A DNA stretch of 64,000 bases from Escherichia coli (GTDB lineage: Bacteria > Pseudomonadota > Gammaproteobacteria > Enterobacterales > Enterobacteriaceae), in assembly GCF_003991155.1 (NCBI RefSeq), contig NZ_CP031293.1. One strand, 5' to 3'. Positions within the stretch are counted from its first letter, which is position 1, and every line of letters begins with the position of its first letter. The position numbers and the translations under genes are program-made. This document shows, one piece after another, positions 4,325 through 62,623 of this stretch. The notes under the pieces were generated by a model. It saw only the letters and a list, made by a program, of their open reading frames with translations, did no database searches and was not told where the DNA came from.

Positions 4325-4393
4325 AGGCTCATAATTTCTGGTGATTTTATGCCGCCAACTTTACTCGCCAGGCTCTGATTTTCCGGTGACAGG

Positions 4394-4415
4394 AAAATGA
4401 CAAAATTGTCATTTT
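4394..4415. promoter_or_regulatory. CusR box palindrome in the cusC-cusR divergent intergenic region
   Basis: Palindrome AAAATGACAAAATTGTCATTTT between the divergent cusC and cusR starts. Confidence 0.75.
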
Positions 4416-4480: not shown

Positions 4481-5164
4481 ATGAAACTGTTGATTGTCGA
4501 AGATGAAAAGAAAACCGGAGAATACTTGACCAAAGGGTTAACCGAAGCCGGTTTTGTGGTCGATTTGGCCGACAACGGGCTGAATGGCTACCATCTGGCG
4601 ATGACCGGTGATTATGATCTGATAATCCTCGATATTATGCTGCCGGACGTGAACGGCTGGGATATCGTGCGCATGTTGCGTTCCGCCAATAAGGGGATGC
4701 CGATTCTGTTGCTTACCGCGCTTGGCACCATTGAACATCGCGTCAAGGGGCTGGAGTTGGGGGCCGATGACTATCTGGTGAAGCCGTTCGCTTTTGCTGA
4801 ACTGCTGGCGCGGGTGCGCACTCTCCTGCGGCGCGGGGCGGCGGTGATTATCGAAAGTCAGTTTCAGGTTGCCGATCTGATGGTCGATCTCGTCAGCCGC
4901 AAAGTCACCCGCAGCGGCACGCGCATCACTCTGACCAGTAAAGAATTTACTCTGCTGGAGTTTTTCCTTCGCCATCAGGGCGAAGTGCTGCCCCGCTCGC
5001 TTATCGCCTCGCAGGTATGGGACATGAATTTCGACAGCGACACTAACGCCATTGATGTGGCGGTGAAGCGGCTACGCGGCAAAATCGACAACGACTTTGA
5101 GCCGAAGCTGATTCAAACCGTGCGCGGCGTGGGTTACATGCTTGAGGTACCGGATGGCCAGTAA
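4481..5164 (+). CDS. cusR: CusR OmpR-family response regulator
   Basis: 227-aa [19 protein letters not shown]...; receiver plus winged-helix domains. Confidence 0.95.
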
Positions 5165-6596
5165 GCCATTTCAGCGCCCGTTTTCGCTGGCAACCCGCCT
5201 GACCTTTTTTATCAGCCTGGCCACCATCGCGGCGTTTTTCGCCTTTGCATGGATCATGATCCACTCAGTAAAAGTGCATTTTGCCGAGCAGGATATTAAT
5301 GATTTAAAAGAGATTAGCGCCACCCTTGAACGGGTACTAAATCACCCTGACGAAACGCAAGCCCGACGCTTAATGACGCTGGAAGATATTGTCAGTGGTT
5401 ATTCCAACGTGTTGATTTCCCTGGCAGATAGCCACGGCAAAACGGTGTATCACTCCCCCGGTGCGCCTGATATCCGCGAGTTTGCACGTGATGCCATACC
5501 CGATAAAGACGCTCGGAGCGGCGAGGTGTATCTCCTTTCCGGCCCGACAATGATGATGCCAGGCCACGGTCACGGGCATATGGAACACAGCAACTGGCGG
5601 ATGATTAACTTGCCGGTTGGCCCGTTGGTGGACGGCAAACCGATTTATACGCTCTACATCGCGCTTTCGATCGATTTTCATCTTCATTACATAAATGATT
5701 TGATGAATAAACTTATTATGACCGCATCGATCATCAGCATCCTGATCGTCTTTATCGTGCTGCTGGCGGTACATAAAGGCCACGCGCCAATTCGCAGCGT
5801 CAGCCGTCAAATCCAGAACATTACCTCGAAAGATCTCGACGTTCGCCTCGATCCACAGACCGTGCCCATTGAACTCGAACAACTGGTGCTGTCGTTCAAC
5901 CATATGATCGAGCGTATCGAGGATGTCTTTACCCGCCAGTCCAATTTCTCAGCGGATATCGCTCACGAAATTCGCACGCCGATTACGAATCTCATAACGC
6001 AAACGGAAATCGCCCTCAGCCAGTCGCGCAGTCAGAAGGAGCTGGAAGATGTGCTCTACTCTAATCTCGAAGAGCTGACTCGAATGGCGAAAATGGTCAG
6101 CGATATGTTGTTTCTCGCCCAGGCCGATAACAACCAGTTAATCCCCGAAAAGAAAATGCTCAACCTGGCGGATGAAGTCGGCAAAGTGTTCGATTTTTTC
6201 GAGGCGTTAGCGGAAGATCGCGGCGTGGAGTTGCGGTTTGTTGGTGACGAGTGTCAGGTTGCGGGCGATCCGCTGATGTTGCGTCGGGCGTTAAGCAACC
6301 TGCTTTCGAACGCCCTGCGTTATACGCCACCCGGAGAGGCAATTGTTGTGCGCTGCCAGACGGTCGATCACCAGGTGCAAGTTTCCGTCGAAAACCCCGG
6401 TACGCCCATTGCGCCCGAACACTTACCGCGATTGTTTGACCGTTTCTACCGCGTTGATCCTTCCCGCCAGCGAAAAGGCGAAGGTAGCGGCATTGGGCTG
6501 GCGATAGTGAAATCAATTGTTGTCGCGCATAAAGGCACGGTTGCAGTAACTTCAGATGCGCGCGGAACAAGGTTTGTTATCATATTACCCGCTTAA
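5154..6596 (+). CDS. cusS: CusS copper-sensing histidine kinase
   Basis: Start [16 protein letters not shown] overlaps the cusR stop; H-box HEIRTPIT; HATPase C-terminus. Confidence 0.9.
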
Positions 6597-8983: not shown

Positions 8984-11942
8984 CCTTAATCGCGTCATCG
9001 GATGGTCTGGTTTACTGCTGACGTCTTTATTGAGTACCAGCGCACTCGCAGACAATATCGGCACCAGCGCAGAAGAGCTGGGGCTGAGCGATTATCGCCA
9101 TTTCGTTATTTATCCCCGTCTCGACAAGGCGCTGAAGGCACAGAAAAATAACGACGAAGCAACCGCCATCCGCGAATTTGAATATATACACCAACAGGTG
9201 CCGGATAATATTCCACTAACTTTATACCTTGCGGAAGCCTATCGCCATTTTGGTCATGATGACCGGGCGCGGCTGTTGCTTGAGGATCAACTGAAACGTC
9301 ACCCAGGAGATGCCCGACTTGAGCGCAGTCTGGCGGCTATTCCAGTTGAAGTGAAAAGCGTTACGACTGTTGAAGAACTGCTGGCCCAGCAAAAAGCGTG
9401 CGATGCTGCGCCGACCCTGCGTTGTCGCAGTGAAGTTGGGCAGAATGCCCTGCGGCTGGCACAATTACCTGTCGCCAGAGCGCAACTGAACGATGCGACG
9501 TTTGCTGCATCGCCGGAAGGAAAAACGCTGCGAACCGATCTGCTGCAACGGGCAATCTACCTGAAACAATGGTCCCAGGCAGATACGCTATACAATGAAG
9601 CACGCCAGCAGAACACATTAAGCGCGGCAGAACGCCGCCAGTGGTTTGATGTGCTTCTTGCCGGGCAGCTGGACGATCGGATCCTGGCGCTGCAATCACA
9701 GGGGATCTTCACCGATCCTCAGTCATATATTACTTACGCGACCGCGCTGGCTTATCGTGGCGAAAAAGCACGCCTCCAGCGTTATCTCATTGAAAATAAG
9801 CCGCTGTTTACCACGGACGCACAAGAGAAAAGTTGGCTCTATCTGATATCTAAATACAGCGCCAACCCCGTTCAGGCGTTGGCGAATTATACGGTACAGT
9901 TTGCCGATAACCGCCAGTATGTTGTTGGCGCGACGCTACCGGTGCTGTTAAAAGAAGGTCAGTACGACGCAGCGCAAAAACTGCTCGCCACCCTCCCCGC
10001 CAATGAAATGCTTGAGGAGCGTTATACCGTTAGCGTAGCGACCCATAACAAGGCTGAAGCTCTGCGTCTGGCACGATTGCTGTATCAGCAAGAACCGGCA
10101 AATCTTACCCGCCTGGATCAACTGACCTGGCAACTGATGCAGAACGAGCAGTCACGCGAAGCTGCCGATTTATTGCTGCAACGCTATCCTTTCCAGGGCG
10201 ATGCGCGTGTCAGCCAGACGTTAATGGCGCGACTGGCGTCTCTGCTGGAAAGTCATCCTTACCTGGCAACGCCGGCGAAGGTGGCGATTTTATCGAAACC
10301 CTTACCGCTGGCGGAGCAACGTCAGTGGCAAAGTCAGTTGCCGGGTATTGCAGATAATTGCCCGGCTATAGTTCGCTTGCTGGGCGATATGTCGCCTTCC
10401 TACGATGCCGCCGCCTGGAACCGTCTGGCAAAGTGTTATCGGGACACGCTACCCGGTGTGGCGTTGTATGCATGGCTTCAGGCCGAACAACGACAACCGA
10501 ACGCCTGGCAACATCGTGCGGTAGCCTATCAGGCGTATCAGGTTGAGGACTACGCCACCGCACTGGCGGCCTGGCAGAAAATCAGTCTTCACGACATGAG
10601 CAATGAGGATCTGCTTGCTGCTGCCAATACCGCCCAGGCGGCAGGAAATGGTGCGGCTCGCGATCGCTGGCTTCAGCAGGCAGAACAACGTGGGCTGGGA
10701 AACAATGCCCTCTACTGGTGGCTGCATGCGCAACGTTACATTCCTGGTCAGCCGGAACTCGCACTGAACGATCTCACGCGCTCAATCAATATTGCGCCTT
10801 CTGCCAACGCTTACGTTGCGCGGGCGACAATTTATCGCCAACGTCATAATGTCCCGGCGGCGGTGAGTGATTTGCGCGCCGCGCTGGAACTGGAACCGAA
10901 TAATAGCAACACCCAGGCAGCGCTCGGTTACGCCTTGTGGGATAGCGGTGATATCGCACAGTCGCGGGAAATGCTCGAACAGGCGCATAAAGGGCTACCG
11001 GACGATCCGGCACTTATCCGACAACTGGCCTACGTGAACCAGCGTCTGGATGACATGCCTGCGACGCAGCACTACGCCCGGCTGGTGATTGATGACATTG
11101 ATAATCAGGCGCTGATAACCCCACTGACCCCAGAGCAAAATCAGCAACGCTTCAATTTCCGCCGTCTGCATGAGGAGGTCGGTCGCCGCTGGACGTTCAG
11201 TTTCGATTCTTCTATCGGCTTGCGTTCCGGCGCAATGAGTACCGCTAACAATAATGTCGGCGGCGCAGCGCCAGGGAAAAGCTATCGTAGCTACGGGCAA
11301 CTGGAAGCCGAGTACCGCATCGGACGCAATATGCTGCTGGAAGGCGACCTGCTCTCGGTTTACAGCCGTGTATTTGCCGATACCGGTGAAAACGGGGTGA
11401 TGATGCCGGTGAAAAATCCGATGTCCGGCACCGGTCTGCGCTGGAAGCCGCTGCGCGATCAGATCTTTTTCCTCGCCGTCGAACAGCAGTTGCCGCTGAA
11501 CGGCCAAAATGGCGCATCCGATACCATGCTGCGCGCCAGCGCCTCATTCTTTAATGGCGGCAAATACAGCGACGAATGGCACCCGAACGGTTCAGGCTGG
11601 TTTGCCCAAAACCTGTACCTCGATGCGGCGCAATATGTCCGCCAGGATATTCAGGCGTGGACGGCAGATTATCGCGTCAGCTGGCATCAGAAGGTGGCTA
11701 ACGGACAGACTATTGAGCCTTACGCTCACGTTCAGGACAACGGCTATCGTGATAAAGGCACTCAGGGCGCGCAGCTTGGCGGAGTCGGGGTCCGCTGGAA
11801 TATCTGGACCGGCGAGACGCACTACGACGCCTGGCCGCACAAAGTCAGTCTCGGCGTCGAGTATCAACATACCTTTAAGGCGATTAATCAACGTAACGGA
11901 GAGCGCAACAACGCGTTTCTCACCATTGGAGTGCACTGGTAA
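8970..11942 (+). CDS. nfrA: NfrA outer-membrane protein (phage N4 receptor)
   Basis: Start MKENNLNRVIGWSGLLLTSLLSTSALA (signal peptide); ~990 aa; TPR-like N-terminus. Confidence 0.9.
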   Translation: MKENNLNRVIGWSGLLLTSLLSTSALADNIGTSAEELGLSDYRHFVIYPRLDKALKAQKNNDEATAIREFEYIHQQVPDNIPLTLYLAEAYRHFGHDDRARLLLEDQLKRHPGDARLERSLAAIPVEVKSVTTVEELLAQQKACDAAPTLRCRSEVGQNALRLAQLPVARAQLNDATFAASPEGKTLRTDLLQRAIYLKQWSQADTLYNEARQQNTLSAAERRQWFDVLLAGQLDDRILALQSQGIFTDPQSYITYATALAYRGEKARLQRYLIENKPLFTTDAQEKSWLYLISKYSANPVQALANYTVQFADNRQYVVGATLPVLLKEGQYDAAQKLLATLPANEMLEERYTVSVATHNKAEALRLARLLYQQEPANLTRLDQLTWQLMQNEQSREAADLLLQRYPFQGDARVSQTLMARLASLLESHPYLATPAKVAILSKPLPLAEQRQWQSQLPGIADNCPAIVRLLGDMSPSYDAAAWNRLAKCYRDTLPGVALYAWLQAEQRQPNAWQHRAVAYQAYQVEDYATALAAWQKISLHDMSNEDLLAAANTAQAAGNGAARDRWLQQAEQRGLGNNALYWWLHAQRYIPGQPELALNDLTRSINIAPSANAYVARATIYRQRHNVPAAVSDLRAALELEPNNSNTQAALGYALWDSGDIAQSREMLEQAHKGLPDDPALIRQLAYVNQRLDDMPATQHYARLVIDDIDNQALITPLTPEQNQQRFNFRRLHEEVGRRWTFSFDSSIGLRSGAMSTANNNVGGAAPGKSYRSYGQLEAEYRIGRNMLLEGDLLSVYSRVFADTGENGVMMPVKNPMSGTGLRWKPLRDQIFFLAVEQQLPLNGQNGASDTMLRASASFFNGGKYSDEWHPNGSGWFAQNLYLDAAQYVRQDIQAWTADYRVSWHQKVANGQTIEPYAHVQDNGYRDKGTQGAQLGGVGVRWNIWTGETHYDAWPHKVSLGVEYQHTFKAINQRNGERNNAFLTIGVHW

Positions 11943-16976: not shown

Positions 16977-17180
16977 TATTTTTGTTATTCTTGTATGAAA
17001 TCGTCTCATGTACACGGTCCTTTTTTCGCCGAAAACTGATATTACTTTAATCAAAAGTTGACGTGCCAGATTCGAAGTAAATTTATAAAATATCAAATCA
17101 ATATACATTTTGCACCTTCGAGATAGTAATTGCTGTTACTGTAACATGAGTTACAAACAGCTTCATACCCAGAGCTACTG

Positions 17181-17400
17181 ATGTATCAACACGATTCAAC
17201 AATACCCGATATTTATTCCATGCCTCCAGCAACGATCTTTCTTCCTCCGTTGCGATTTCCCAGCATCCTGCAGTGGCGCAATATACTCACTGAATTCCTG
17301 GATGTAGAACTGTGTGGTGACGGTCTTCCAGCCATTCGGCTCCTGCTGTATCGAAGCATACCAGGCTATTTCAATATCGCTATGCTGCGGCAGCATTTAA
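17181..17400 (-). pseudogene. tfa: Tail fibre assembly (Tfa) 3' remnant, frameshifted
   Basis: Minus-strand frames read ...EYIAPLQDA and [27 protein letters not shown] in different frames; no N-terminus. Confidence 0.65.
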
Positions 17401-17452
17401 CCCCTTGTAATTCATCGCCATAATTGATTTAATTCACAAATAAAACTATAAC

Positions 17453-18121
17453 ATGGTGAAATTAATGAAAAAAAACACAGATGATGGGGCTAAAATTTAC
17501 ACACCACTTACCCTAAAGCTTTATGACTGGTGGGTTTTGGGAGTATCAAATCGGCTTGCATGGGGATGTCCTACAAAGGAACACCTTCTTCCACACTTTC
17601 TGGAACATTTAGGTAACAACCATCTGGATATTGGTGTTGGAACTGGGTTTTACCTTACTCACGTACCTGAGAGCAGTCTGATATCTTTAATGGATTTGAA
17701 CGAAGCTAGCCTGAACGCGGCATCTACAAGGGCTGGGGAATCAAAAATTAAACATAAAATTAGCCATGATGTTTTTGAACCTTATCCCGCGGCGTTACAT
17801 GGTCAATTTGATTCCATTTCCATGTTTTACCTTCTTCACTGCCTGCCTGGAAATATATCTACAAAAAGCTGTGTAATACGCAATGCGGCGCAGGCCTTAA
17901 CTGACGATGGAACTCTATACGGAGCCACAATTCTTGGCGATGGAGTTGTGCACAATAGCTTCGGTCAAAAACTGATGCGCATTTACAATCAGAAAGGCAT
18001 CTTTTCAAACACAAAAGATTCCGAAGAAGGCTTAACACATATACTCTCAGAGCATTTCGAGAATGTTAAAACCAAGGTTCAAGGTACTGTAGTAATGTTT
18101 TCCGCTTCAGGGAAAAAATAG
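17453..18121 (+). CDS. ybcY: Class I SAM-dependent methyltransferase (YbcY-like)
   Basis: 222-aa ORF with motif I LDIGVGTGFY; sits between tfa remnants as ybcY does in DLP12. Confidence 0.7.
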   Translation: MVKLMKKNTDDGAKIYTPLTLKLYDWWVLGVSNRLAWGCPTKEHLLPHFLEHLGNNHLDIGVGTGFYLTHVPESSLISLMDLNEASLNAASTRAGESKIKHKISHDVFEPYPAALHGQFDSISMFYLLHCLPGNISTKSCVIRNAAQALTDDGTLYGATILGDGVVHNSFGQKLMRIYNQKGIFSNTKDSEEGLTHILSEHFENVKTKVQGTVVMFSASGKK

Positions 18122-18222
18122 CATCCAACCGCAGCACGTTCTTGCTTAAGACGTGCTGCGGCATAATCCCAATGATTACTCCCTGACAGGGTTCGTAGGC
18201 CACTCAATATCAGGTGCAGTTG

Positions 18223-18300
18223 ATGTATCAACACGGTTCAGCAACACCCGATACTTCTTCCAGGCTTCCAGCAACGAGGTTTCTTCCTCCGTTGCATATA
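18223..18300 (-). pseudogene. tfa: Tail fibre assembly (Tfa) C-terminal remnant, second copy
   Basis: Minus-strand frame reads [25 protein letters not shown]; direct-repeat homolog of 17181-17260. Confidence 0.6.
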
Positions 18301-18313
18301 CAGCTCACTTTTT

Positions 18314-18607
18314 TCACCCACGATTAACCAACAGCCAGACCAGCAGACACGCCACCACCGGCACAGCAAAATCCATCAGACTTGCTACATCCCACGCGCG
18401 CGGATCAAAACCGCCCCACCACGGCATATTCATTCGCTTGCCATGCCCGAACATTTCAATCCAGCGATATTCTGCCTGGGTGTGTTCACGCGCAATGAAG
18501 AACGTACAACCGGCTATCGCCCCGTAAACCCAGTTTCCGGTAAAAAGACCAATCAGTACCTGCGCAGCCACAGCACAAAGCGCATGAAGAAAAGGTGTTA
18601 TATCCAT
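18314..18607 (-). CDS. Small hydrophobic protein of unknown function
   Basis: 97-aa ORF MDITPFLHALCAVAAQVLIGLF... with predicted TM helices; same strand as tail genes. Confidence 0.35.
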   Translation of the reverse strand: MDITPFLHALCAVAAQVLIGLFTGNWVYGAIAGCTFFIAREHTQAEYRWIEMFGHGKRMNMPWWGGFDPRAWDVASLMDFAVPVVACLLVWLLVNRG

Positions 18608-44306: not shown

Positions 44307-45170
44307 ATGGATATAACTTGTTTAGAATGTGGCAATGTTCTTGACGACCCAACTGTAGCTTGCGATAAATGCGGTGCCACGCCTCATGTTGTAGTGCTGG
44401 GCAAACAATCGTACTTTCCTATTGGTGCTGTAACAGCAAATCTTGAAAAAAATGATTCAAGAGCATTTGATTATCGATTAGGTGAAGTTTGGGATCTAAA
44501 AAATGAAGTCACATCTGAATTCATAACCAGAATTGAGAAAAAATTTAGCCGAAAAAACAAATTTCATAACTTCCTAGACTCAGATCACAACCCTTCATCC
44601 ATTCCTACGATCCTAAAAAAATACATTAATAAGAATAATGAATTCATTGATTTATCTAGAGCTATAATAGAGAAGCTTAAACATAATGCTAATAACGAAT
44701 CGAGAGTTGCCCAACTTCAGGGGGGGAGCGTTGTTTTCATCCACTATAAGTCTACCGAACCAGAGGATTTGGGGAAACTTCTAATCGTAATGGTTGATAA
44801 ACAAAGCGCCTATGACTTTGATTCGGATAAGTTGACCCCAACAAGATTAAATCCAATTAATACCGATGCCTTACGGCAGGCTGCGATGTTCGATTTAACT
44901 TTATTCGAAGCCAGTTATCCAGAAAACAAGGGTGACTCATATGTACATTTCTTGCAAGGTAAATCTAAAAGCGATTTTTTCAAAGACTCATTAGGTTGCC
45001 GACATGATTCGGACAATAAAAGAAGCATTCAGCAATTATTCAGTGCTATAGATATTTTTGCTAGTAAAAACTCACTCGGTCGTGTACTGCGTGATACTAT
45101 TGACAATGAAGTTAAATCCTTACTGGAAAAAAATCAAAAGATAAACACGGAAATAAGTCCGTTAAGATAG
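44307..45170 (+). CDS. Zn-ribbon + NdpA/YejK-like nucleoid-associated-protein-family protein, truncated by frameshift at an A7 tract
   Basis: 287-aa ORF; N-terminal CLECGN-x10-CDKCG; FSRKNKFHNF, GGSVVFIHYK and YVHFLQGKSKSDFFKDSLG align by eye to YejK; AT-rich. Confidence 0.7.
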   Translation: MDITCLECGNVLDDPTVACDKCGATPHVVVLGKQSYFPIGAVTANLEKNDSRAFDYRLGEVWDLKNEVTSEFITRIEKKFSRKNKFHNFLDSDHNPSSIPTILKKYINKNNEFIDLSRAIIEKLKHNANNESRVAQLQGGSVVFIHYKSTEPEDLGKLLIVMVDKQSAYDFDSDKLTPTRLNPINTDALRQAAMFDLTLFEASYPENKGDSYVHFLQGKSKSDFFKDSLGCRHDSDNKRSIQQLFSAIDIFASKNSLGRVLRDTIDNEVKSLLEKNQKINTEISPLR

Positions 45171-45483: not shown

Positions 45484-46698
45484 ATGACAATTGCTGATGA
45501 CTTATCAAGATTAGCGCAGATTATTAACGGAGCCTCAAGCAGAGTTGAGGGCTACTACACTGTCATAAGTCTTGAAGAAAGCATTGTTATTGTAAATAGT
45601 TCTGAAATAATTAGACTGTTACAATCTATAGGTTATAAAAAGGCAACAACCTGCATCGAAAATAATGAAATTTGGCTAGATCGCCAAGCTTCATCTTGGG
45701 ATGATGCTATAATTTATGAGAATGTTGAGTCTTTTTGGTCTAGAGTAAACACCCAAAACGCTCTTCCGAAAAATTATATCATCGGAACGCCGTTAATACT
45801 CCCTACTTCTAAGAATGAAAGCATCGAAAAAATCCATATTTTCTTTATGTGGAAAGATATCCTTTCATTAATTGCTGATCATCATAACAGTGACTGCTCT
45901 GTCTTATTTTTCACCAATGAAGACAAAAGTTATACAGTCGAACTCACGCATTTTTTACAATATAGCGAGATTAATCGCTTATCGAACTCGTCTCTTAAAT
46001 ATGAAATTATAAAGGAGCTTCTCGACACAATAAAAATCAATGATTTACACAAAAGCGAGCGCAAGCTCGTTATACGCTCAGCCATAAACGAAGTATTTAA
46101 AGCAAATGGTACGTTCAATTTCTTTGACTTGCTTAACTCTACTGAACTCGTCAGGAAAAAATATGATGAACTATATGAGATTTACACAAAGAGGTTTTCT
46201 GTAAATAAAATTCTTAACGAACTCGATGAGAAAAATCTTGAGTTCACGAGTAAAATTAACGAATTCATATCATCTAATCAGACAAAAGCATTGACTATTC
46301 CCGGTGCATTAATAGCAGCTGGTGGCTTAGTGAAGGCTAATGAAACAACCGAAGCAATATTGATTATCGCAGGACTTTGGATGATAAAAAAAGTCAATTA
46401 CATTTCTATTGAGATATTCAATGAAACATTCGACAACTTACGTTCTCGAGTGGAGTCCGCTTTCGATAAGTATTTAAAGTTTGAAGAAAATAAAGAAATC
46501 AAAGATAATGCAGATAGTATTAAGAGTAGCATTACAGGTTTGATTGATAAAGCTAAAAAAAGGATGAGAACTGTTAAATATCTCGCATCAGCCATGTTTT
46601 ATGGAGGCCTTATTTACGTTGGATATAAACAGTTCCCAGTCTTTTTTGAAAAATCGGCAGTAAATCTATTTTATTTTTTATGCCATACTATAAGCTAA
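45484..46698 (+). CDS. Hypothetical membrane-anchored protein, two C-terminal TM segments
   Basis: 404-aa AT-rich ORF; hydrophobic LTIPGALIAAGGLV...ILIIAGLWMI and YLASAMFYGGLIYVGY; no Walker or nuclease motifs seen. Confidence 0.7.
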   Translation: MTIADDLSRLAQIINGASSRVEGYYTVISLEESIVIVNSSEIIRLLQSIGYKKATTCIENNEIWLDRQASSWDDAIIYENVESFWSRVNTQNALPKNYIIGTPLILPTSKNESIEKIHIFFMWKDILSLIADHHNSDCSVLFFTNEDKSYTVELTHFLQYSEINRLSNSSLKYEIIKELLDTIKINDLHKSERKLVIRSAINEVFKANGTFNFFDLLNSTELVRKKYDELYEIYTKRFSVNKILNELDEKNLEFTSKINEFISSNQTKALTIPGALIAAGGLVKANETTEAILIIAGLWMIKKVNYISIEIFNETFDNLRSRVESAFDKYLKFEENKEIKDNADSIKSSITGLIDKAKKRMRTVKYLASAMFYGGLIYVGYKQFPVFFEKSAVNLFYFLCHTIS

Positions 46699-47905: not shown

Positions 47906-48068
47906 GATTCCTCCTTGCTGCCAGTCGCAACCATTTTTTATCAACCAGGCTAGCGGTATATCCGAGCAGTGTTGGTATTTCGGATGGCTTCGGCTCAGGC
48001 TTACGCTTACGACGATTTGATACTCTGTAGATGTGTCCGTTCATGACACGAATAAGCGGTGTAGCCAT
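47898..48068 (-). CDS. ninE: NinE family protein
   Basis: Reverse-strand translation [31 protein letters not shown]... (56 aa); start overlaps ybcN stop. Confidence 0.6.
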   Translation of the reverse strand: MATPLIRVMNGHIYRVSNRRKRKPEPKPSEIPTLLGYTASLVDKKWLRLAARRNHG

Positions 48069-48523
48069 TACGCCTCCTGCTTGTCACGGAGCAGCTGGAA
48101 CTCGCAGCTCTGCGGAATAGTCAGGTGGCAGCCAATATTCACCGCCCAGGCTTCAACCTTACACAGGAAGACATACATCTCTCCGGTATCAAGATCGGAG
48201 GTATGGCGTAACGACTGGATAGTGGTGATATCACCGGTTACGACATCAACCAGGTCTTTGGTTTCATAACCGAGATATGTGTGTTTGAGAGCATCTTTTA
48301 CCCAAGCTGGAGTGGCGAACGTTTTACCCCTGTTGATGAGGTATTCACTGATTTCGCTGTACCACATGTGGCTGAGTGCATTCTGGGAAAGACTGCGTTT
48401 CTCACGCCACGGTTTAAGCACCATGCGAAAGCATTTGCCCTCCTCCAGATAAGGCTGGATCTGCCGACCGATAGCGGTGAAGTTACCGCGATGTAATTTG
48501 ATGCCATCTTGTGGGAGATTCAC
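48068..48523 (-). CDS. ybcN: YbcN-like nin-region protein (DUF1367)
   Basis: 151-aa [37 protein letters not shown]... Confidence 0.8.
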
Positions 48524-48719
48524 GCTTCACCTCCGCAGAGGTCAAACGCTGGATGCAAAAAATCGCAGGTGCATCTCTGCATCTGTGAAGGGAGAAGAGA
48601 GTTTGGATTGTATGTGCGCATAAACGTCCCCGTTTAGCGCAGAAGTCACCGGAGTTGTTCAGGCTCCGATGACATGATTATGGCAAAATGATTATGTAAA
48701 ATCAAAAGCCAAAAAACAA

Positions 48720-49664
48720 TTATGGTTTATTTTCTAGCTCTGATTTTTTGAAAGCTTCTATCAGACGATTAGCATCTTCTGTACCACCAGGAAGCACGTT
48801 TGATTTTTTAAGAATATACGGTGGGAACTTTGTGGTTAAATATTCATGCTTAAACCATCTACGAAACTCTGACAATGCAGAATCAGGATAGGCATTAATG
48901 ATCTGAGGATTGGAACTTGCCTGAAGAAAATCTTCAGGGTAATAATGCTCACAGTCTACTCTTTCTCCAAATTCTGTTGCTAACCCCTTTGCTTTCCAGT
49001 GACGCGCCCAGCAAGAACCAACACTGCCATCAGGTACGGTATGCTGATTAATCGCTAATCCAGCATTGATGAGATCTACCATCATACCTGCAATTTCATT
49101 AAATATAATGAAATACCCATCAGGTATGGTTCCCTTATCTTTTAATAAAGATACTCTGTCATGGTAATGCCTCCACGGGTCCTCCGGTTGATATTTTAGC
49201 GCCTCGTATATAAATGTCTTGAGGCCTTTTTTAGCAAGCTCTCTGTAAGATCTAATTGCAGTCTCACTTTCTGCTTGTTTTGCTTCAAAGGCATAGTATT
49301 CAAGTATAGCCATGCATACAACATCTGGATAAGCATGGTACTCAACACCATTTCGAATTATTGGTATATAAAGTTTTTCATCTGTAAAACCTTCATTAAG
49401 AAGATATGTACCAATAAAAGTCATTCTTCCTTTTTTGAAAATACCGTTCTCAACAGATTGAGCCCACTCATCGGTAATTTCCTTGATTCGCAAACGCTGA
49501 ACACCACAAACATTTGCCAACCCATTCTGAGTAAGGTACGGAATTCCGTTATCGAGTACCCCCATTTCTATACCGTTAATGACAGCCTCTTGCTTAACAT
49601 CTAAGTCTAAAGGTATGGATCTGAGGGAGGTAGTTCTCTGTTGTGCCATTTTTGATCCTATCAA
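48720..49664 (-). CDS. Hypothetical protein with possible Bro-N/KilA-N-like N-terminus (nin-region moron)
   Basis: 314-aa AT-rich ORF; N-terminal GVLDNGIPYLTQNGLANVCGV loosely resembles Bro-N; C-terminal region unassigned. Confidence 0.55.
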   Translation of the reverse strand: MIGSKMAQQRTTSLRSIPLDLDVKQEAVINGIEMGVLDNGIPYLTQNGLANVCGVQRLRIKEITDEWAQSVENGIFKKGRMTFIGTYLLNEGFTDEKLYIPIIRNGVEYHAYPDVVCMAILEYYAFEAKQAESETAIRSYRELAKKGLKTFIYEALKYQPEDPWRHYHDRVSLLKDKGTIPDGYFIIFNEIAGMMVDLINAGLAINQHTVPDGSVGSCWARHWKAKGLATEFGERVDCEHYYPEDFLQASSNPQIINAYPDSALSEFRRWFKHEYLTTKFPPYILKKSNVLPGGTEDANRLIEAFKKSELENKP

Positions 49665-49853
49665 TTTGAATTCATTGAAAAAATTAGGTGTTCCCTATGC
49701 ATTAGAACACTCATCATAGTAACCCCACTCGTTTGTGAAAAAAACTAATTTCACAATCAGTTAACTCTCAAAATAACTGATATTCATACTCTCGCTATCC
49801 CATATATAGACATCCTTGTTTTAATACAACACTCATGGCTGGCGGCTATACTC

Positions 49854-50171
49854 CTAACAGATTTGACGCAAATACGGCAATACTCGACTCCACTTATCAT
49901 CCTGCCACGGCTGAAGTTTTACATGTGCCGTTTCTCGGACGAGGATTGCTCGCGCTCTGTTGAGTATCTGGGGATATTCTTGCTCGATGGAAGTGAAGTG
50001 ACCAGCTTCACCATGCTCCGCATCCTGAAGAAGATGAGTAACGTTCTGGTAGGCAATTAACATCACATTCCCTGCTCGCCATAACCAGGCGAGTGTGCAA
50101 AGTTCGTTATCAGTGAATTGTTTTGTGATTGGGGATTGTTGAACTGCTAGAACGAGAACGCCAGCATCCAT
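49854..50171 (-). CDS. Hypothetical phage protein
   Basis: 105-aa ORF (non-ATG start likely); between the 314-aa gene and the recombinase. Confidence 0.35.
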   Translation of the reverse strand: MDAGVLVLAVQQSPITKQFTDNELCTLAWLWRAGNVMLIAYQNVTHLLQDAEHGEAGHFTSIEQEYPQILNRARAILVRETAHVKLQPWQDDKWSRVLPYLRQIC

Positions 50172-50282
50172 TGGCAGTCCCTATAGTAAAACCATAGCTC
50201 AGGACGCTTCGTTCAGGATAGATAATTTTATTGTACTTACCTAACTTTCTTACTATAGCACGGTTGAAAAAGTGATTATTAC

Positions 50283-51809
50283 TCAAAAATAAACCTCACC
50301 ATCAACCATATATTTGAGAGTACTTATCGCCTGCTGGGCGGATATTGTTTTCATTAAAGGATAGTGTTTAAAAACAATGCCATTCATAAAATAGATATCA
50401 CAGGTTTTATTATCTGTATTGATTATGATTTTTTCGAATGTTTTATAGGCAAGTGTACGACATAGCTCTCGCCCATTTTTACTGGTTAAGTCAATAGCAT
50501 GAAAATCACCAAGTGAGCTCACCGCTTTACTCTTCAAAGTTTTTAATGATACAGAAGCCCTTCGTAATTCCTTATCTAATACTCTGATTTTTTCTGCTAT
50601 AGCGGTAACTTCAGGCGCAACAGATAATGCAGCAATTAAATTATTAATTTTCATCTGGAGCTCAATAATTTTCAACTCTAAAGTTTCATTAGCATCTTTC
50701 TTGTTTTCAACTGGTTGGATTTTACTACAATTAAAAAGCAACTCATTAATGATATTATAATCAACCAAATCTCTCTTTATTGATGGCCTGTCACATCGAT
50801 GCAGTCTTCTCATCGGACAAACATAATAGCCATGCAAACTTCCAGATACCGCATGAACAATCATGGTATTACCACAAGCCTCGCACTTCATAACTGTTCG
50901 AAGTAGATTTATCAACATAGGATTTTTGCTACTATTGCTAATACCAAAAGGTGCCAACCGAATTTCCTGCACAGCGTAAAACAAATCATCTGATATGACT
51001 CTGGGATAATAGCCAGCGATTTCACTTATTCCTTTACCTCTTGCACGATATGAAGGTACGCATATACCTATCAGAGCTTTATTCGCTAATAATTTTTCAA
51101 TTACAGAAGGTCCCCATGCACTTTCTTTTCCTGAGAAATTCTTTACAGCATGATCATTTAAATACTTGGCTATTGCATTCAATGAGCGCCTTTCCATCCT
51201 GAGTTTAAAAATTAGCTCAATAGTTTTCACCCTGTCGGGGTCTGGAACAAAAGCCGTTCTTTTGTCATCTAAGGAGAGCCATCTCGGACAAGACGCCGTC
51301 ATAATCGTGCCTGACTCCAGTGCATCCTGCCGTTTTTTCTTCCATGATAATTTAACCCGACTTGACTTTATCTCGCTTTCTTCATTTGCCCTTTGTGCTA
51401 TAAGTATGGCTTTTATTAATGAATATGGATCATTCAAAGAGTCAATATTATAGACTGTATTATCGCAAAGAGTTATAACATCAATACCGTGATTCAAAAT
51501 CAATTTCAGACGCTCAATCGCTTCACCGACTTTTTCTCTTGAAAGTCTGTCCAGACTTTCAACTAACAATGTAGTTCCTGGCAATATATAACCATGCTCT
51601 ATAGCATCTAAAAATTCCGAAAAAGCTCCTGATTGTGCATGCTTTCCTTTGAATGCACTTAATCCTAAATCTTCATATGTTATGGTATCAAGATAATAAT
51701 CACTATTTACCTTTAACCATTCAGCAATAAGTCTTCTCTGTCGGTTTAATGAGTCGCCAGACATCTGACCTGGTGATGAAAATCGCATATATGCTATGGC
51801 TTTTTTCAT
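50283..51809 (-). CDS. ybcK: Large serine recombinase (YbcK-like)
   Basis: 508-aa AT-rich ORF MKKAIAYMRFSSPGQ... with resolvase catalytic domain, recombinase domain and Cys-rich zinc ribbon. Confidence 0.8.
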   Translation of the reverse strand: MKKAIAYMRFSSPGQMSGDSLNRQRRLIAEWLKVNSDYYLDTITYEDLGLSAFKGKHAQSGAFSEFLDAIEHGYILPGTTLLVESLDRLSREKVGEAIERLKLILNHGIDVITLCDNTVYNIDSLNDPYSLIKAILIAQRANEESEIKSSRVKLSWKKKRQDALESGTIMTASCPRWLSLDDKRTAFVPDPDRVKTIELIFKLRMERRSLNAIAKYLNDHAVKNFSGKESAWGPSVIEKLLANKALIGICVPSYRARGKGISEIAGYYPRVISDDLFYAVQEIRLAPFGISNSSKNPMLINLLRTVMKCEACGNTMIVHAVSGSLHGYYVCPMRRLHRCDRPSIKRDLVDYNIINELLFNCSKIQPVENKKDANETLELKIIELQMKINNLIAALSVAPEVTAIAEKIRVLDKELRRASVSLKTLKSKAVSSLGDFHAIDLTSKNGRELCRTLAYKTFEKIIINTDNKTCDIYFMNGIVFKHYPLMKTISAQQAISTLKYMVDGEVYF

Positions 51810-52065
51810 GGTGACACCTGCTAACGTATGCTTTTATAAACCTTAGTGGTGAGATATAATTTTTGTTTAATTTTTATTTAAAAAGACAATTAAGGTCACA
51901 TTATCTTGAATATACAACAATAATCGTATTGCAATTTTCTTACGCCATAATCTTGAAAGCACAAAAGAATACATAAAAAAATAAAGACATTAACAAAAAG
52001 CATAAAACGAGGCTCATATAAATATAAGAGCCTCCATATTTTAGTCGTTTAGAAACAAATTATTT

Positions 52066-52398
52066 TTAATGTGGTGTGCTTCGTGACAATAAATTAATAA
52101 CCAACACACCGGCACAAATCAACATCATGCCTATAATGGCTGGCAGGTCCAGCCGTTGGCCGAAAAATCCCCATGACAGTAAGCTAATCAGGACAATACC
52201 GACTCCTGACCAGATAGCATAAGCAATCCCTGTAGGAATATAAGCCAGCGTCTGAGCTAATAACCAGAATGATGCACAATAACAAATAATTGTACCAACA
52301 GATGGCCATAACCGTGTAAAACCTTCTGAAAACTTCATTAAGGTTGTACCAATGACCTCTGCAAGTATTGCACCACCAAGATAAATATAAGGGTTCAT
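52066..52398 (-). CDS. emrE: EmrE small multidrug resistance transporter
   Basis: Start MNPYIYLGGAILAEVIGTTLMKFSEGF...; four TM helices. Confidence 0.9.
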   Translation of the reverse strand: MNPYIYLGGAILAEVIGTTLMKFSEGFTRLWPSVGTIICYCASFWLLAQTLAYIPTGIAYAIWSGVGIVLISLLSWGFFGQRLDLPAIIGMMLICAGVLVINLLSRSTPH

Positions 52399-52465
52399 AG
52401 CATATTCTTTCCTGTTCAAACTGGAGAGAATTGTACTACAGTTTGAAATCAACTCACCTGTTTCA

Positions 52466-52768
52466 TCATTGTGTACCCATTGATGTTCTTTTATATACCC
52501 TCAATAAGCGTTTCATCGCGGCACTCTGGCGACACTCCTTAAAAATCAGATTCGTGCTCACCTTTCCTTCCCGTTCTTCTCTGGTAGCGAACCGGTAATA
52601 CACCGTTCGCCAGACCTTACCATCAACGACCAGGATTCCTGCCCGCGCCATTTTAGCCGCAGCCTGATTTATGCTGGTTACGGTTGCGCCTGTTACCGCG
52701 GCAACGTCCTGTGCACAGAAGCTCTTATGCGTCCCCAGGTAATGAATAATTGCCTCTTTGCCCGTCAT
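52466..52768 (-). CDS. ren: Ren protein
   Basis: 100-aa ORF MTGKEAIIHYLGTHKSFCAQDVAAVTGATVTSINQAAAKMARAG... Confidence 0.85.
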   Translation of the reverse strand: MTGKEAIIHYLGTHKSFCAQDVAAVTGATVTSINQAAAKMARAGILVVDGKVWRTVYYRFATREEREGKVSTNLIFKECRQSAAMKRLLRVYKRTSMGTQ

Positions 52769-53466
52769 ACACTTGCTCCTTTCAGTCCGAACTTAGCTTT
52801 AATTTCTGCGATCTTCGCCAGAGCCTGTGCACGATTTAGAGGTCTACCGCCCATAACAGGAAGTTGTTTTACTGGTTCAGGGATCGCCTCACCACGGTTA
52901 ATTCGCGCGGTCATACAAGTCAGTTCATCGGCAGCCTTGCGCCGTAATTCCGTATCAGTAAGCGCATTGGCCCGCATATTCTGGTACAGGCTAGTAACCA
53001 GCCAGTAGTGCGCGTTTGATTTCCACGGATAAGACTCTGCATCCGGATACAGGCCACGCTTCCGGCAATACTCGTAAACCATATCAACCAGCTCGCTGGC
53101 GTTTGGCAGTCCGGCAATAACGGATACTTCTTCACGGCACCATGCAACAAACTGCCCGGGTGATGGCAGGAATGGTCGATTCTGCCGACGGGCTACGCGC
53201 ATTCCTGCGTTAACCTGTTCCATTGTGGTGATCCCGTTTTCCCGGAAAGCCAGAACCCACTGGCGGCGGATTTCGTTCAGTTCGTTCTGGTCCCGGTTAG
53301 CCAGGCTCGCCGGGAAAGTTGCCAGTAACTGGCTGAACACACCATTGATGATCTGCGCTACCTGCTGTACCTGAGGCTTTTCGTCGTACTGTTCCGGCAT
53401 GTTGTTGGCGATCCGACGCATCTGCTCACGGTCAAAGTTAATCATCTGTGCGGCGATGTTTTTCAT
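52765..53466 (-). CDS. P: Replication protein P (helicase loader), lambda type
   Basis: 233-aa ORF MKNIAAQMINFDREQMRRIANNMPEQYDEKPQ... Confidence 0.9.
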   Translation of the reverse strand: MKNIAAQMINFDREQMRRIANNMPEQYDEKPQVQQVAQIINGVFSQLLATFPASLANRDQNELNEIRRQWVLAFRENGITTMEQVNAGMRVARRQNRPFLPSPGQFVAWCREEVSVIAGLPNASELVDMVYEYCRKRGLYPDAESYPWKSNAHYWLVTSLYQNMRANALTDTELRRKAADELTCMTARINRGEAIPEPVKQLPVMGGRPLNRAQALAKIAEIKAKFGLKGASV

Positions 53467-61169: not shown

Positions 61170-61512
61170 GGCCTGTCAGTTTCTTAAGATATCCAGACCA
61201 ACCGCCACCAACTGGATACGAACAGGCCGCCTACAGGCAACACGTAAAGATCCAACCAAGCCAAAATCTCCTTACCTCACAACACGGCAAGCCTGCATTG
61301 CGGCGCTTCAGTCTCCGCTGCATACTGTCCAGGTGAGCGCGGGTGATGGCATAACAGAGGAAAGAAAATGTCACTCTTCCGCAGAAATGAAATATGGTAT
61401 GCCTCGTATTCGCTCCCGGGCGGGAAACGAATTAAGGAATCTCTTGGCACAAAGGACAAGCGGCAAGCTCAGGAGTTGCACGACAAGCGAAAAGCAGAAC
61501 TCTGGCGAGTAG
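61141..61512 (+). CDS. xis: Excisionase / AlpA-like HTH protein
   Basis: [31 protein letters not shown]... immediately upstream of and overlapping int; exact 3' extent uncertain. Confidence 0.5.
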
Positions 61513-62531
61513 AAAAGCTAGGGGATTTACCTGATGTCACTTTTGAAGAGGCCTGCCTAAGATGGCTTGAGGAAAAAGCTGATAAAAAATCTCTCGATTC
61601 AGATAAAAGCCGGATTGAGTTCTGGCTTGAACATTTTGAGGGTATAAGGCTTAAAGATATCTCGGAGGCAAAGATTTACTCTGCTGTAAGCAGAATGCAT
61701 AACAGAAAGACGAAAGAAATATGGAAACAGAAAGTTCAGGCCGCCATCAGGAAAGGTAAAGAACTGCCTGTTTATGAACCAAAGCCAGTATCAACTCAGA
61801 CAAAGGCAAAGCATCTTGCCATGATAAAGGCCATTCTCCGTGCTGCAGAACGCGACTGGAAGTGGCTGGAAAAAGCGCCTGTCATCAAGATACCAGCGGT
61901 CAGAAACAAGCGAGTCAGATGGCTGGAAAAGGAGGAAGCAAAACGCCTTATTGATGAGTGCCCCGAACCACTGAAATCTGTCGTCAAGTTTGCGCTGGCA
62001 ACTGGTCTGAGAAAGTCGAACATCATAAATCTGGAATGGCAACAAATCGACATGCAGCGACGAGTTGCCTGGGTGAATCCAGAAGAGAGCAAATCAAACC
62101 GCGCCATTGGTGTGGCGCTGAACGATACCGCCTGTAAAGTGTTGCGTGATCAAATAGGCAAGCATCGCAAATGGGTGTTTGTACATACCAAGGCGGCTAA
62201 GCGAGCAGATGGAACATCAACGCCTGCGGTCAGGAAGATGCGCATCGACAGCAAGACATCATGGCTATCAGCTTGTCGTCGTGCAGGAATTGAAGATTTC
62301 CGTTTCCATGACCTCAGACACACCTGGGCAAGCTGGCTGATTCAGTCAGGCGTCCCATTATCAGTGCTTCAGGAAATGGGCGGATGGGAGTCCATAGAAA
62401 TGGTTCGTAGGTATGCTCACCTTGCGCCTAATCATTTGACAGAGCATGCGAGGAAAATAGACGACATTTTTGGTGATAATGTCCCAAATATGTCCCACTC
62501 TGGAATTATGGAGGATATAAAGAAGGCGTAA
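61368..62531 (+). CDS. intD: Tyrosine integrase (DLP12 IntD-like, argU-specific)
   Basis: 387-aa [36 protein letters not shown]...; C-terminal [10 protein letters not shown]...RYAH catalytic motifs; next to tRNA-Arg. Confidence 0.9.
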
Positions 62532-62546
62532 CTGATTGAATTGTAA

Positions 62547-62623
62547 TGGCGCGCCCTGCAGGATTCGAACCTGCGGCCCACGACTTAGAAGGTCGTTGCT
62601 CTATCCAACTGAGCTAAGGGCGC
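62547..62623 (-). tRNA. argU: tRNA-Arg (anticodon UCU), attL site
   Basis: Reverse complement GCGCCCTTAGCTCAGTTGGATAGAGCAACGACCTTCTAAGTCGTGGGCCGCAGGTTCGAATCCTGCAGGGCGCGCCA; 3' 45 nt duplicated at 13823. Confidence 0.9.

Follow-up and report, generated by a model that had tools for sequence, protein, structure and literature searches.

YbcK, a large serine recombinase carried together with emrE as cargo of a DLP12-like lambdoid prophage of Escherichia coli

Introduction

Why would a lambdoid prophage equipped with a tyrosine integrase also carry, in the middle of its genome, a gene for a second, integrase-type recombinase, and on which DNA would such an enzyme act? The question is raised by a 64,000-nucleotide stretch of Escherichia coli DNA (RefSeq assembly GCF_003991155.1, contig NZ_CP031293.1; hereafter, "the window"), which contains, at argU, a lambdoid prophage that appears to be complete, its gene content comprising terminase, head, tail, lysis, replication and integrase genes. 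The integration module of the prophage itself is an intD-type tyrosine integrase gene (61368..62531, plus strand) adjoining tRNA-Arg(tct) at 62547-62623, from which the serine recombinase gene ybcK is distinct, just as a preliminary description of the locus had proposed.

Results

Locus organization and the cargo hotspot

The open reading frames of ybcK (50283..51809, minus strand; a 508-aa large serine recombinase, LSR, according to Pfam, PHROG, profile and AF2/Foldseek evidence) and emrE (52066..52398, minus strand; a 110-aa SMR multidrug efflux transporter by Pfam and RefSeq name) were confirmed to the base, and both lie between ren (52466..52768, minus strand; open reading frame and RefSeq label) and the ninB-like ybcN (48068..48523, minus strand), after which ninE, ybcO and rusA follow. 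Many E. coli chromosomes match positions 49600-52800 of the window at 100% identity, and in these RefSeq names the genes ybcK, ylcJ, emrE and ren; ylcJ, a small open reading frame at 51867..52017 (minus strand; RefSeq and K-12 comparison) that encodes 49 aa in K-12, is labelled as frameshifted by RefSeq in these identical genomes. The earlier view of ybcK and emrE as DLP12-like nin-region cargo is borne out by the K-12 prophage DLP12, which keeps the order ren-emrE-ylcJ-ybcK, and the gene pair is already annotated, and hence already known, in K-12. Their placement "between ren and the nin genes" was correct too, but it left out two genes located between ybcK and the nin genes, namely, a 5'-truncated gene for a P22AR_C (anti-repressor-like) protein (49854..50171, minus strand; domain and prophage comparison) and bstA (48720..49664, minus strand), which encodes a 314-aa abortive-infection defence protein (PADLOC BstA, 3.8e-121; PHROG 6287, 1.9e-136).

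The GC content of the emrE-ylcJ-ybcK block is 0.31-0.41 vs. ~0.5 in its flanks, and, judging by this composition, the block is foreign, low-GC cargo. Its left edge falls within the last ~10-30 nt of ren, where similarity to cargo-free prophages sets in again at 52494 and that to an emrE island at the fliE locus stops at 52475. On the other side, the truncated P22AR_C gene matches the 3' half of a gene (202 aa) found whole in other prophages, and the truncation marks an illegitimate junction ~110 nt 3' of ybcK. Next to the ybcK block, bstA fills the second cargo slot of the ren-ninB interval. Beyond it, upstream of ybcN, lies a ~130-bp linker of the ylcH region (48538..48678, no strand assigned; prophage comparison), and since a second copy of this linker brackets the cargo cassette in other prophages, it is the right-hand limit of the hotspot. 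Other prophages have SIR2, NACHT, HEPN, DUF4041, DUF4145, hydrolase, ybcL-ybcM or BstA genes in this interval, and the ybcK block is located in a ren-ninB cargo/defence hotspot. PADLOC matched neither YbcK nor EmrE, the only match among the neighbours in the window being the 314-aa BstA.

In many E. coli, an emrE-ybcL-ybcM island devoid of ybcK is found at the fliE locus, relative to which K-12 holds an extra segment of ~2.1 kb (ylcJ and ybcK). No terminal inverted repeats were seen at the ends of this segment, the junctions of which are blurred by 8-9% divergence.

YbcK and EmrE proteins

The assignment of YbcK as an LSR was confirmed by matches to all three LSR domains of Pfam: Resolvase (residues 4-161, E=5e-19), Recombinase (PF07508; residues 191-284, 2e-14) and Zn_ribbon_recom (residues 302-357, 8e-8). 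The resulting architecture consists of a catalytic domain (residues 1-~165, with Ser11), a recombinase domain (~190-285), a zinc ribbon (Cys309/312/331/339), a coiled coil (~367-428) and a beta-rich tail. The AF2 model (pLDDT 79.9) has helices at 367-395 and 401-428, and its best Foldseek matches are full-length SprA, PhiC31, Bxb1 and A118. A search of the PDB with the single YbcK sequence gave no match, and a profile search was required: the family profile matched SPbeta SprA (9dxh, 2e-17), the A118 integrase, PhiC31 and TP901-1, with the recombinase domain aligning to those of SprA and A118, while PHROG 95 ("integrase") matched YbcK at E=2e-120.

The catalytic serine, the presence of which was worth checking, is there in the N-terminal motif as Ser11, in a pocket with R9, D87, R88 and R91. 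Throughout a 25-sequence family alignment (genus-level relatives at 27-62% identity), R9, S11, Q15, D47, S51, D87, R88, R91 and the four cysteines are invariant and Y7 nearly so, and all nine catalytic residues (including Y7) and the zinc cysteines are invariant in 34 E. coli protein alleles. By sequence and predicted fold, YbcK is a complete and catalytically equipped LSR, and it looks fully functional. As for its neighbour, EmrE matches Pfam Multi_Drug_Res/SMR at 3-94 (E=2e-35), and its sequence, MNPYIYLGGAILAEV, has Glu at position 14, i.e., the membrane-embedded Glu14 is in place.

What relatives of YbcK do can be read from their surroundings. In Klebsiella michiganensis and Mangrovibacter yixingensis, yecE/DUF72 is interrupted by an ~11-kb island carrying a YbcK-family LSR; its attL is found 35-65 nt ahead of the start of the LSR gene, and its 18-nt terminal inverted repeats match at 16/18 positions. 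Other members of the family sit at prophage ends. Relatives of YbcK are thus real island and prophage integrases. Another lambdoid prophage has a 60%-identical relative next to a SIR2 gene in its nin region, and further ones lie beside AbiTii, RexB or STAND NTPase genes.

Distribution and conservation of ybcK

Among 5426 complete E. coli genomes, ybcK is present in 1425 (near full length in 1399), i.e., in about a quarter of them, with a median of one and a maximum of two places per positive genome. It occurs in a single context, together with ylcJ and emrE in the first cargo slot after ren, with emrE upstream of it in every testable locus. The reading frame is intact in 79 of the 80 related viral loci from IMG/VR (34 protein alleles), and its dN/dS is 0.06-0.16 (15 allele pairs; dS up to 0.17), i.e., the gene is under strong purifying selection. 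Occasional disruptions by IS1 or IS3 occur. Its synonymous diversity exceeds that of emrE, and the gene is still intact. The carriers include viable phages (Perceval, 4A7, Turner, D2, 1W, 3W and the PhiR phages), of which Perceval and 4A7 have tyrosine Int and Xis besides ybcK; Perceval is an active prophage (PMC9928086). The intact frames, the low dN/dS and the viable phage carriers together mark ybcK as a gene that is maintained and no debris. The suggestion that ybcK might be a remnant of another element therefore stands only in part: the foreign, low-GC block and the integrase nature of the family members agree with an origin elsewhere, but the gene is not decaying.

Search for recombination sites and rearrangements

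No significant direct or inverted repeats were found at 48400-52900, where only short, chance-level pairs occur, and a dyad scan with 16-nt arms over 50000-52500 peaked at 12/16, which equals the mode of block-shuffled controls; the same site-finding method recovered the att sites of the 37%-identical relatives. The remark that no obvious cognate site lies near the recombinase gene is upheld by both searches. A weak inverted repeat (14/17; 51847-51863 vs. 50285-50301) does bracket the ybcK reading frame at the position where the element-side arm of the relative sits, but 2-4% of shuffles reach its score, K-12 has it at 13/17 only, and it is absent in 18 relatives; as a candidate YbcK site it is a weak lead only. 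Inverted copies of the upstream arm 3' of the 40-60%-identical relatives were all at chance level.

Two further candidates were rejected. A crossover at the ybcK stop was considered because the K-12 sequence and those of the other variants part 9 nt past it, but an alignment of ~65% continues beyond this point, and with the downstream sequences still this much alike, the position is an allele boundary and not a recombination site. A K-12-only inverted repeat with 13-nt arms 3' of ybcK, considered as a partner site, does not exist in the window; 675 genomes have it, with one copy each.

None of 60 records drawn from among the 1425 ybcK-positive genomes has a prophage-chromosome junction at ybcK, which argues against routine use of YbcK as the integrase of the phage. 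No inverted pieces were seen at the locus in the 80 IMG/VR loci, and no inversion against phage 4A7, whose homologous segments, those of the tail-fibre region included, are all collinear with the window prophage. The population rearrangements at ybcK are IS1 and IS3 insertions or deletions only. No attP/attB or directionality factor is known for YbcK, and the literature search returned no report of its activity.

Expression of emrE and ybcK

In phage Perceval, emrE is treated as a lysogen-expressed moron (PMC9928086). K-12 ybcK is kept silent by a Rho/NusG-dependent terminator, tybcK, located in its untranslated leader (PMC4150792). In the window, the corresponding conserved leader spans ~130 nt 5' of the start codon (51810..51940, minus strand; aligned by eye). 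Across six alleles, these ybcK-proximal ~130 nt vary little, as judged by eye for a sub-region that has no score of its own, segregating sites amounting to 13% of ybcK third-codon positions vs. 18% of the whole 256-nt intergenic region. From its near-identity with the K-12 leader, Rho-dependent silencing of ybcK would be expected in the window strain as well. A hairpin followed by a T-run 3' of emrE (52006..52037, minus strand; dyad GGAGGCTC...GAGCCTC, then TTTT), which pairs at 12/16, resembles an intrinsic terminator that would set emrE apart from ybcK; because it is missing from the list of a consensus scan, this role is one that we only infer.

Discussion

The emrE-ylcJ-ybcK block is probably best understood as a known cargo of DLP12-family lambdoid phages, the recombinase of which looks functional and is maintained, with no target for YbcK within the window. 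The block would have spread among lambdoid phages by homologous or illegitimate recombination at the ren and ylcH/ninB flanks, and not through YbcK. In a lysogen, the Rho-dependent terminator of the ybcK leader would keep the gene off, and, after infection or induction, N-antiterminated rightward early transcription running through ren, emrE and ybcK would lead to YbcK being made. As with serine integrases in general, a YbcK dimer would then bind each of two sites of ~40-50 bp, the two bound sites would synapse as a tetramer in which Ser11 cuts all four strands, and rotation of the subunits would be followed by religation of the strands. The site pair would lie outside the window, an integration-type reaction in trans being our best guess. 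As no substrate was found, the functional half of this explanation is what we infer, and confinement of ybcK expression to early transcription is itself extrapolated from the K-12 data and gene order. No paper found gives YbcK a recombination function; the papers deal with Rho-dependent silencing and with a sabinene-tolerance phenotype reported for YbcK overexpression or deletion in K-12/BL21, which has no obvious tie to recombination.

Several other explanations deserve weighing. YbcK might be, or until recently have been, the mobilising integrase of a ~2.1-kb element made of ybcK and ylcJ that inserted beside emrE, or might offer the phage a second, Int-independent route of integration into a different chromosomal site, as the ybcK-free fliE-locus island, the extra K-12 segment, the att sites just upstream of the genes of true integrases of the family and the bracketing repeat at the arm position of the relative would have it; this is doubtful, however, given that the ends of the K-12 segment (as far as their 8-9% divergence lets junctions be placed) have no terminal inverted repeats, that in E. 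coli the gene is single-copy and confined to one context, that the repeat weakens in K-12 and vanishes in 18 relatives, and that no chromosome junction lies at or near ybcK in the related genomes and phages compared. That YbcK is an active, early-transcribed integrase kept besides tyrosine Int and acting in trans on a second chromosomal attachment site or on another mobile element, resident or incoming, is, taken as a claim of its own, unlikely; if true, it would make YbcK a hotspot-resident recombinase taking part in phage-phage competition or cargo capture, and not a passive passenger. An equally unlikely opposite is a stranded, inert integrase gene that persists only because emrE and the phage carry it along, for which the missing cognate site, the absence of population rearrangements, the silencing in K-12 and the tolerated IS1/IS3 disruptions would all speak, were it not for the low dN/dS at appreciable dS, the 79 intact frames out of 80, the invariance of catalytic and zinc residues across alleles and relatives (with Y7 nearly so) and a synonymous diversity above that of emrE in a gene that remains whole.

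Because the slot otherwise holds anti-phage genes, YbcK could also be thought of as a defence or exclusion factor acting on incoming or co-resident foreign DNA, in keeping with the SIR2, NACHT, HEPN, DUF4041 and BstA genes of the ren-ninB interval and with the SIR2, AbiTii, RexB and STAND NTPase neighbours of its relatives; YbcK, however, has no PADLOC match and, per the K-12 data, is silent in lysogens, unlike most prophage defence genes, which leaves such a role quite improbable. Recombinases often lie beside defence cargo merely as mobility genes, and an LSR serving as a defence effector would be, to our knowledge, without precedent. Hardly credible at all is a tail-fibre invertase, although serine recombinases do flip tail-fibre segments in e14 (Pin), Mu (Gin) and P1 (Cin), and two tfa-like fragments are present at 17100-18350, on which the preliminary description had supposed that YbcK might act. 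The tfa repeats (17179-17253 and 18221-18295) are pieces of tail-fibre-assembly genes, 88% identical and in direct orientation, that flank a methyltransferase gene, and the sole inverted pair between 16000 and 22500 (26 nt, 73% match) lies within repetitive coding sequence; since the repeats are direct gene fragments, the tail-fibre idea was rejected, in line with the lack of inversions in the 80 loci and the collinearity with 4A7. Tail-fibre invertases are, moreover, proteins of ~190 aa with a C-terminal helix-turn-helix, as opposed to the 508-aa, integrase-type YbcK.

To return to the reading of the block as maintained phage cargo, it is at least clarified that ybcK is not a pseudogene, not a tail-fibre invertase and not the integrase of the prophage. 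Its target, if found, would explain the presence of a second integrase-type enzyme in lambdoid phages, and could also supply genome engineering with a new serine integrase of enterobacterial origin.

Comparison with known systems

The closest counterpart is DLP12 of K-12, with the ren-emrE-ylcJ-ybcK order in common, ~97% nucleotide identity over 50274-52679 and 508-aa YbcK and 110-aa EmrE products in both. DLP12, however, is cryptic, whereas the window prophage looks complete; ren is split by IS3 in DLP12 but not in the window; and the similarity falls from ~97% to ~65% at 9 nt past the ybcK stop, the cargo 3' of ybcK being truncated P22AR_C and bstA in the window vs. ybcL-ybcM in DLP12.

The Hin, Gin, Cin and Pin invertases, which flip tail-fibre segments between paired inverted 26-bp sites with the aid of an enhancer, have the serine-recombinase catalytic domain in common with YbcK, in agreement with a weak match of PHROG 125 ("DNA invertase") to residues 1-258, but none of their features (~190 aa, helix-turn-helix, inverted sites, enhancer, tail-fibre flipping) is seen at ybcK. 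The LSR of the yecE islands belongs to one family with YbcK (full-length alignment, 36-37% identity) and is located at the edge of a mobile element, with attL/attR, 18-nt arms (16/18) and a precisely split host gene, neither of which ybcK has. Finally, the solved phage serine integrases are 14-20% identical to YbcK, which differs from them in its extra C-terminal beta-rich region (~458-507) and in the mid-genome position of its gene in a phage that has tyrosine Int/Xis as well, while SPbeta SprA, A118, PhiC31, Bxb1 and TP901-1 have the same succession of a catalytic Ser domain, a long helix E, a recombinase domain and a coiled-coil-inserted zinc ribbon.

Prophage Organization

An apparently complete lambdoid prophage occupies the DLP12 site of the E. 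coli chromosome in the window, and its early right region, encoded on the minus strand, reads in the direction of transcription: cro-like gene, YdaT-like gene, O, P, ren (52466-52768), emrE (52066-52398), a frameshifted ylcJ (51867-52017), ybcK (50283-51809), a short P22AR_C ORF (49854-50171), a 314-aa ORF (48720-49664), ylcH, the ninB-like ybcN (48068-48523), ninE, ybcO, rusA, ylcG and Q. The ren-emrE-ylcJ-ybcK order is identical to that of DLP12 in K-12, the interval 49600-52800 shows 100% identity with many sequenced strains and bears the same gene names in RefSeq, and the ybcK-emrE feature has been described and annotated before. The coordinates of the recombinase and emrE in the preliminary description agree exactly with the ORF calls, domain matches and RefSeq names, and the gene order bears out its placing of both genes as cargo between ren and the nin genes, as in DLP12; the recombinase is likewise distinct from the 387-aa tyrosine integrase, which is encoded at 61368-62531, adjoining tRNA-Arg(tct) (62547-62623).

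Elsewhere in the prophage, a low-GC (33-36%) gene pair lies on the plus strand between the Q antiterminator and holin genes. The product of 44307-45170 is an NA37/YejK-like nucleoid-associated protein of 287 aa, versus 391 aa in NZ_CP029747.1, which otherwise matches, and the gene may be frameshifted; the 404-aa product of 45484-46698 has no match in Pfam or PADLOC.

Integrity, Conservation and Expression of ybcK

YbcK contains all three large serine recombinase (LSR) domains (Pfam) and is an integrase in PHROGs (E=2e-120). In a family alignment of 25 members with 27-62% identity, R9, S11, Q15, D47, S51, D87, R88 and R91 of the catalytic pocket are invariant, as are the zinc ligands C309, C312, C331 and C339; Y7 is nearly so. 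With the domains intact and the catalytic residues invariant, a YbcK devoid of its catalytic serine can therefore be dismissed, S11 being present here and throughout the family. A single-sequence search for structural relatives returned no match, whereas the family-alignment profile matched SPbeta SprA (2e-17), A118 integrase, PhiC31 and TP901-1. In the AlphaFold model (pLDDT 79.9), a catalytic domain, long helix E, a recombinase domain, a zinc ribbon and a coiled coil of two helices can be recognised, and the structures that it matches best are full-length serine integrases.

Among 5426 complete E. coli genomes, 1425 carry ybcK (median of one site per genome, maximum of two), near full-length in 1399 of them, and emrE is found upstream at every testable locus. 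The 508-aa ORF is intact in 79/80 viral-contig loci, and no catalytic or zinc-binding residue is changed in any of the 34 protein alleles from these loci. Six alleles compared in pairs give dN/dS values of 0.06-0.16 (dS <=0.17). YbcK also occurs at ~98% amino-acid identity in 12 isolated-phage records, among which Perceval, documented as an active prophage (PMC9928086), and 4A7 encode a canonical tyrosine integrase and excisionase besides YbcK. The suggestion that the gene might be a remnant of another element thus does not stand as far as decay is concerned, the intact ORFs, the low dN/dS and the phage carriers all speaking against it, and ybcK is, judging by its sequence, a well-conserved enzyme. 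Within 50283-52398, the proportion of segregating third-codon positions among the six alleles is 13% in ybcK versus 3.6% in the adjacent emrE, so that coalescence depth differs between the two halves of the block.

In K-12, ybcK is kept silent by a Rho/NusG-dependent terminator located in its leader (PMC4150792). The leader in the window is nearly identical to that of K-12, and visual inspection of the alleles shows it to be less variable than the synonymous sites of ybcK. As the gene order places ybcK in the rightward early operon, it would presumably be made after infection or induction, on antiterminated transcription, in contrast to emrE, which has been treated as a lysogen-expressed moron (PMC9928086). 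In BL21, ybcK is reported to have a sabinene-tolerance phenotype (PMC7181518).

Search for YbcK Target Sites

No candidate YbcK substrate was found inside the window, and repeat and dyad scans around ybcK gave nothing above chance level, in keeping with the earlier remark that no obvious cognate site is present. An inverted repeat with a 14/17 match brackets the ORF, one arm at -54..-38 and the other across the last 17 nt, with a score reached by only 2-4% of shuffles; in K-12 the match is down to 13/17, and 18 relatives lack the repeat. At the K-12 DLP12 locus (L006, 2614-2662), a perfect inverted repeat with 13-nt arms (AAAATACGTGACA, 24 nt, TGTCACGTATTTT) lies ~200 nt downstream of ybcK and is confined to ybcL/ybcM-type variants (675 genomes, one copy per genome); being absent from the window and single-copy, it was rejected as a YbcK site.

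The tfa-repeat region, which had been proposed as a possible target, fares no better: its repeats (17179-17253 and 18221-18295) are fragments of tail-fibre-assembly genes, 88% identical and in direct orientation, with a methyltransferase gene between them, and YbcK is not of the small-invertase type that flips tail fibres, so that a role as a tail-fibre invertase was rejected. Across 80 loci, no inverted segments were seen within 10 kb of ybcK; the structural variants examined are IS insertions or deletions, or swapped cargo downstream of ybcK, and all segments homologous between phage 4A7 and the window prophage are collinear.

A Cargo Hotspot between ren and ybcN

The GC content is 31-41% at 50200-52400 versus ~50% in the flanks. 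A cargo hotspot spans the interval from ren to the ylcH/ybcN linker; in other E. coli prophages it is filled by SIR2, NACHT, HEPN, DUF4041, DUF4145, NADAR plus phosphoribosyltransferase-like, hydrolase or ybcL-ybcM genes, or by almost nothing. In the window, emrE-ylcJ-ybcK takes the first slot, and the second, directly 3' of ybcK, holds the 314-aa ORF, a BstA abortive-infection defence protein (PADLOC E=3.8e-121; PHROG 6287) that has no Pfam match and is a "hypothetical protein" in RefSeq. The P22AR_C (anti-repressor-like) ORF preceding bstA corresponds to the 3' half of a 202-aa gene found complete in other prophages (L020-L022), its 5' half having been lost at the junction. This truncated ORF is the mark of an illegitimate recombination junction ~110 nt downstream of ybcK, and progressively shorter pieces of it are kept in O157 and other variants.

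A ~130-bp ylcH-region sequence upstream of ybcN (48538-48678 in the window) is present in two copies in some prophages, the direct repeats enclosing the second cassette, with P22AR_C and defence genes (901-1007 and 3167-3301 in L020; 2048-2232 and 3590-3720 in L021; 3601-3707 and 5473-5576 in L022). It also ends (4266-4412) an emrE island at the fliE locus of NZ_LR134222.1 (L005), and could serve as a linker for swapping cassettes by homologous recombination. This island, emrE-ybcL-ybcM without ybcK (4483-6342), is found in many E. coli between fliE and yedK, outside any prophage; it adjoins IS200/IS605 tnpA/tnpB, and its divergence from the DLP12 copies is 8-9%. Relative to it, K-12 has an extra ~2.1 kb with ylcJ and ybcK, at the junctions of which, too diverged to read, no terminal repeats were found. 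Transfer of the emrE-ylcJ-ybcK block from phage to phage probably takes place through ordinary recombination in conserved flanking sequence.

Comparison with Related Recombinases

The genomic settings of YbcK relatives vary: the one in Atlantibacter sits at a prophage end adjoining ssrA, those in Yersinia and Erwinia at prophage ends 3' of tail-fibre genes, others in the nin region of further lambdoid prophages (one adjoining a SIR2 gene), some next to umuC and some in plasmid-like pilus regions. In plasmid-like DNA of Citrobacter (L015, 8145-11530) and Mixta (L119, 8319-11527) a YbcK-family LSR lies beside type IV pilus genes and a PilV/shufflon-type gene (a faint match); the equivalent position in IncI plasmids is held by the tyrosine recombinase Rci. 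For the related Mixta island, the adjoining gene is a truncated one for a type II/IV secretion ATPase instead of yecE, which is interrupted in the two hosts considered next.

For the LSRs of Klebsiella michiganensis (L121) and Mangrovibacter (L122), 36-37% identical to YbcK, the element can be defined as an island of ~11 kb, precisely interrupting yecE (DUF72), with the recombinase gene at its left edge and attL 35-65 nt upstream of the start codon. The att sites lie at 9941-9967 and 20916-20947 in L121 and at 9943-9969 and 21360-21390 in L122; the 18-nt terminal arms, CCTTTCTTATGATACACT and AGTGTATCAATAGAAAGG, are inverted copies (16/18 match), and a GT.ATCCTG core is common to both junctions. 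The recovery of these sites means that the YbcK family includes real integrases and that the approach is able to find such sites. Whereas the same approach yielded no att sites at ybcK, the yecE-island LSRs have clear ones, together with a split host gene.
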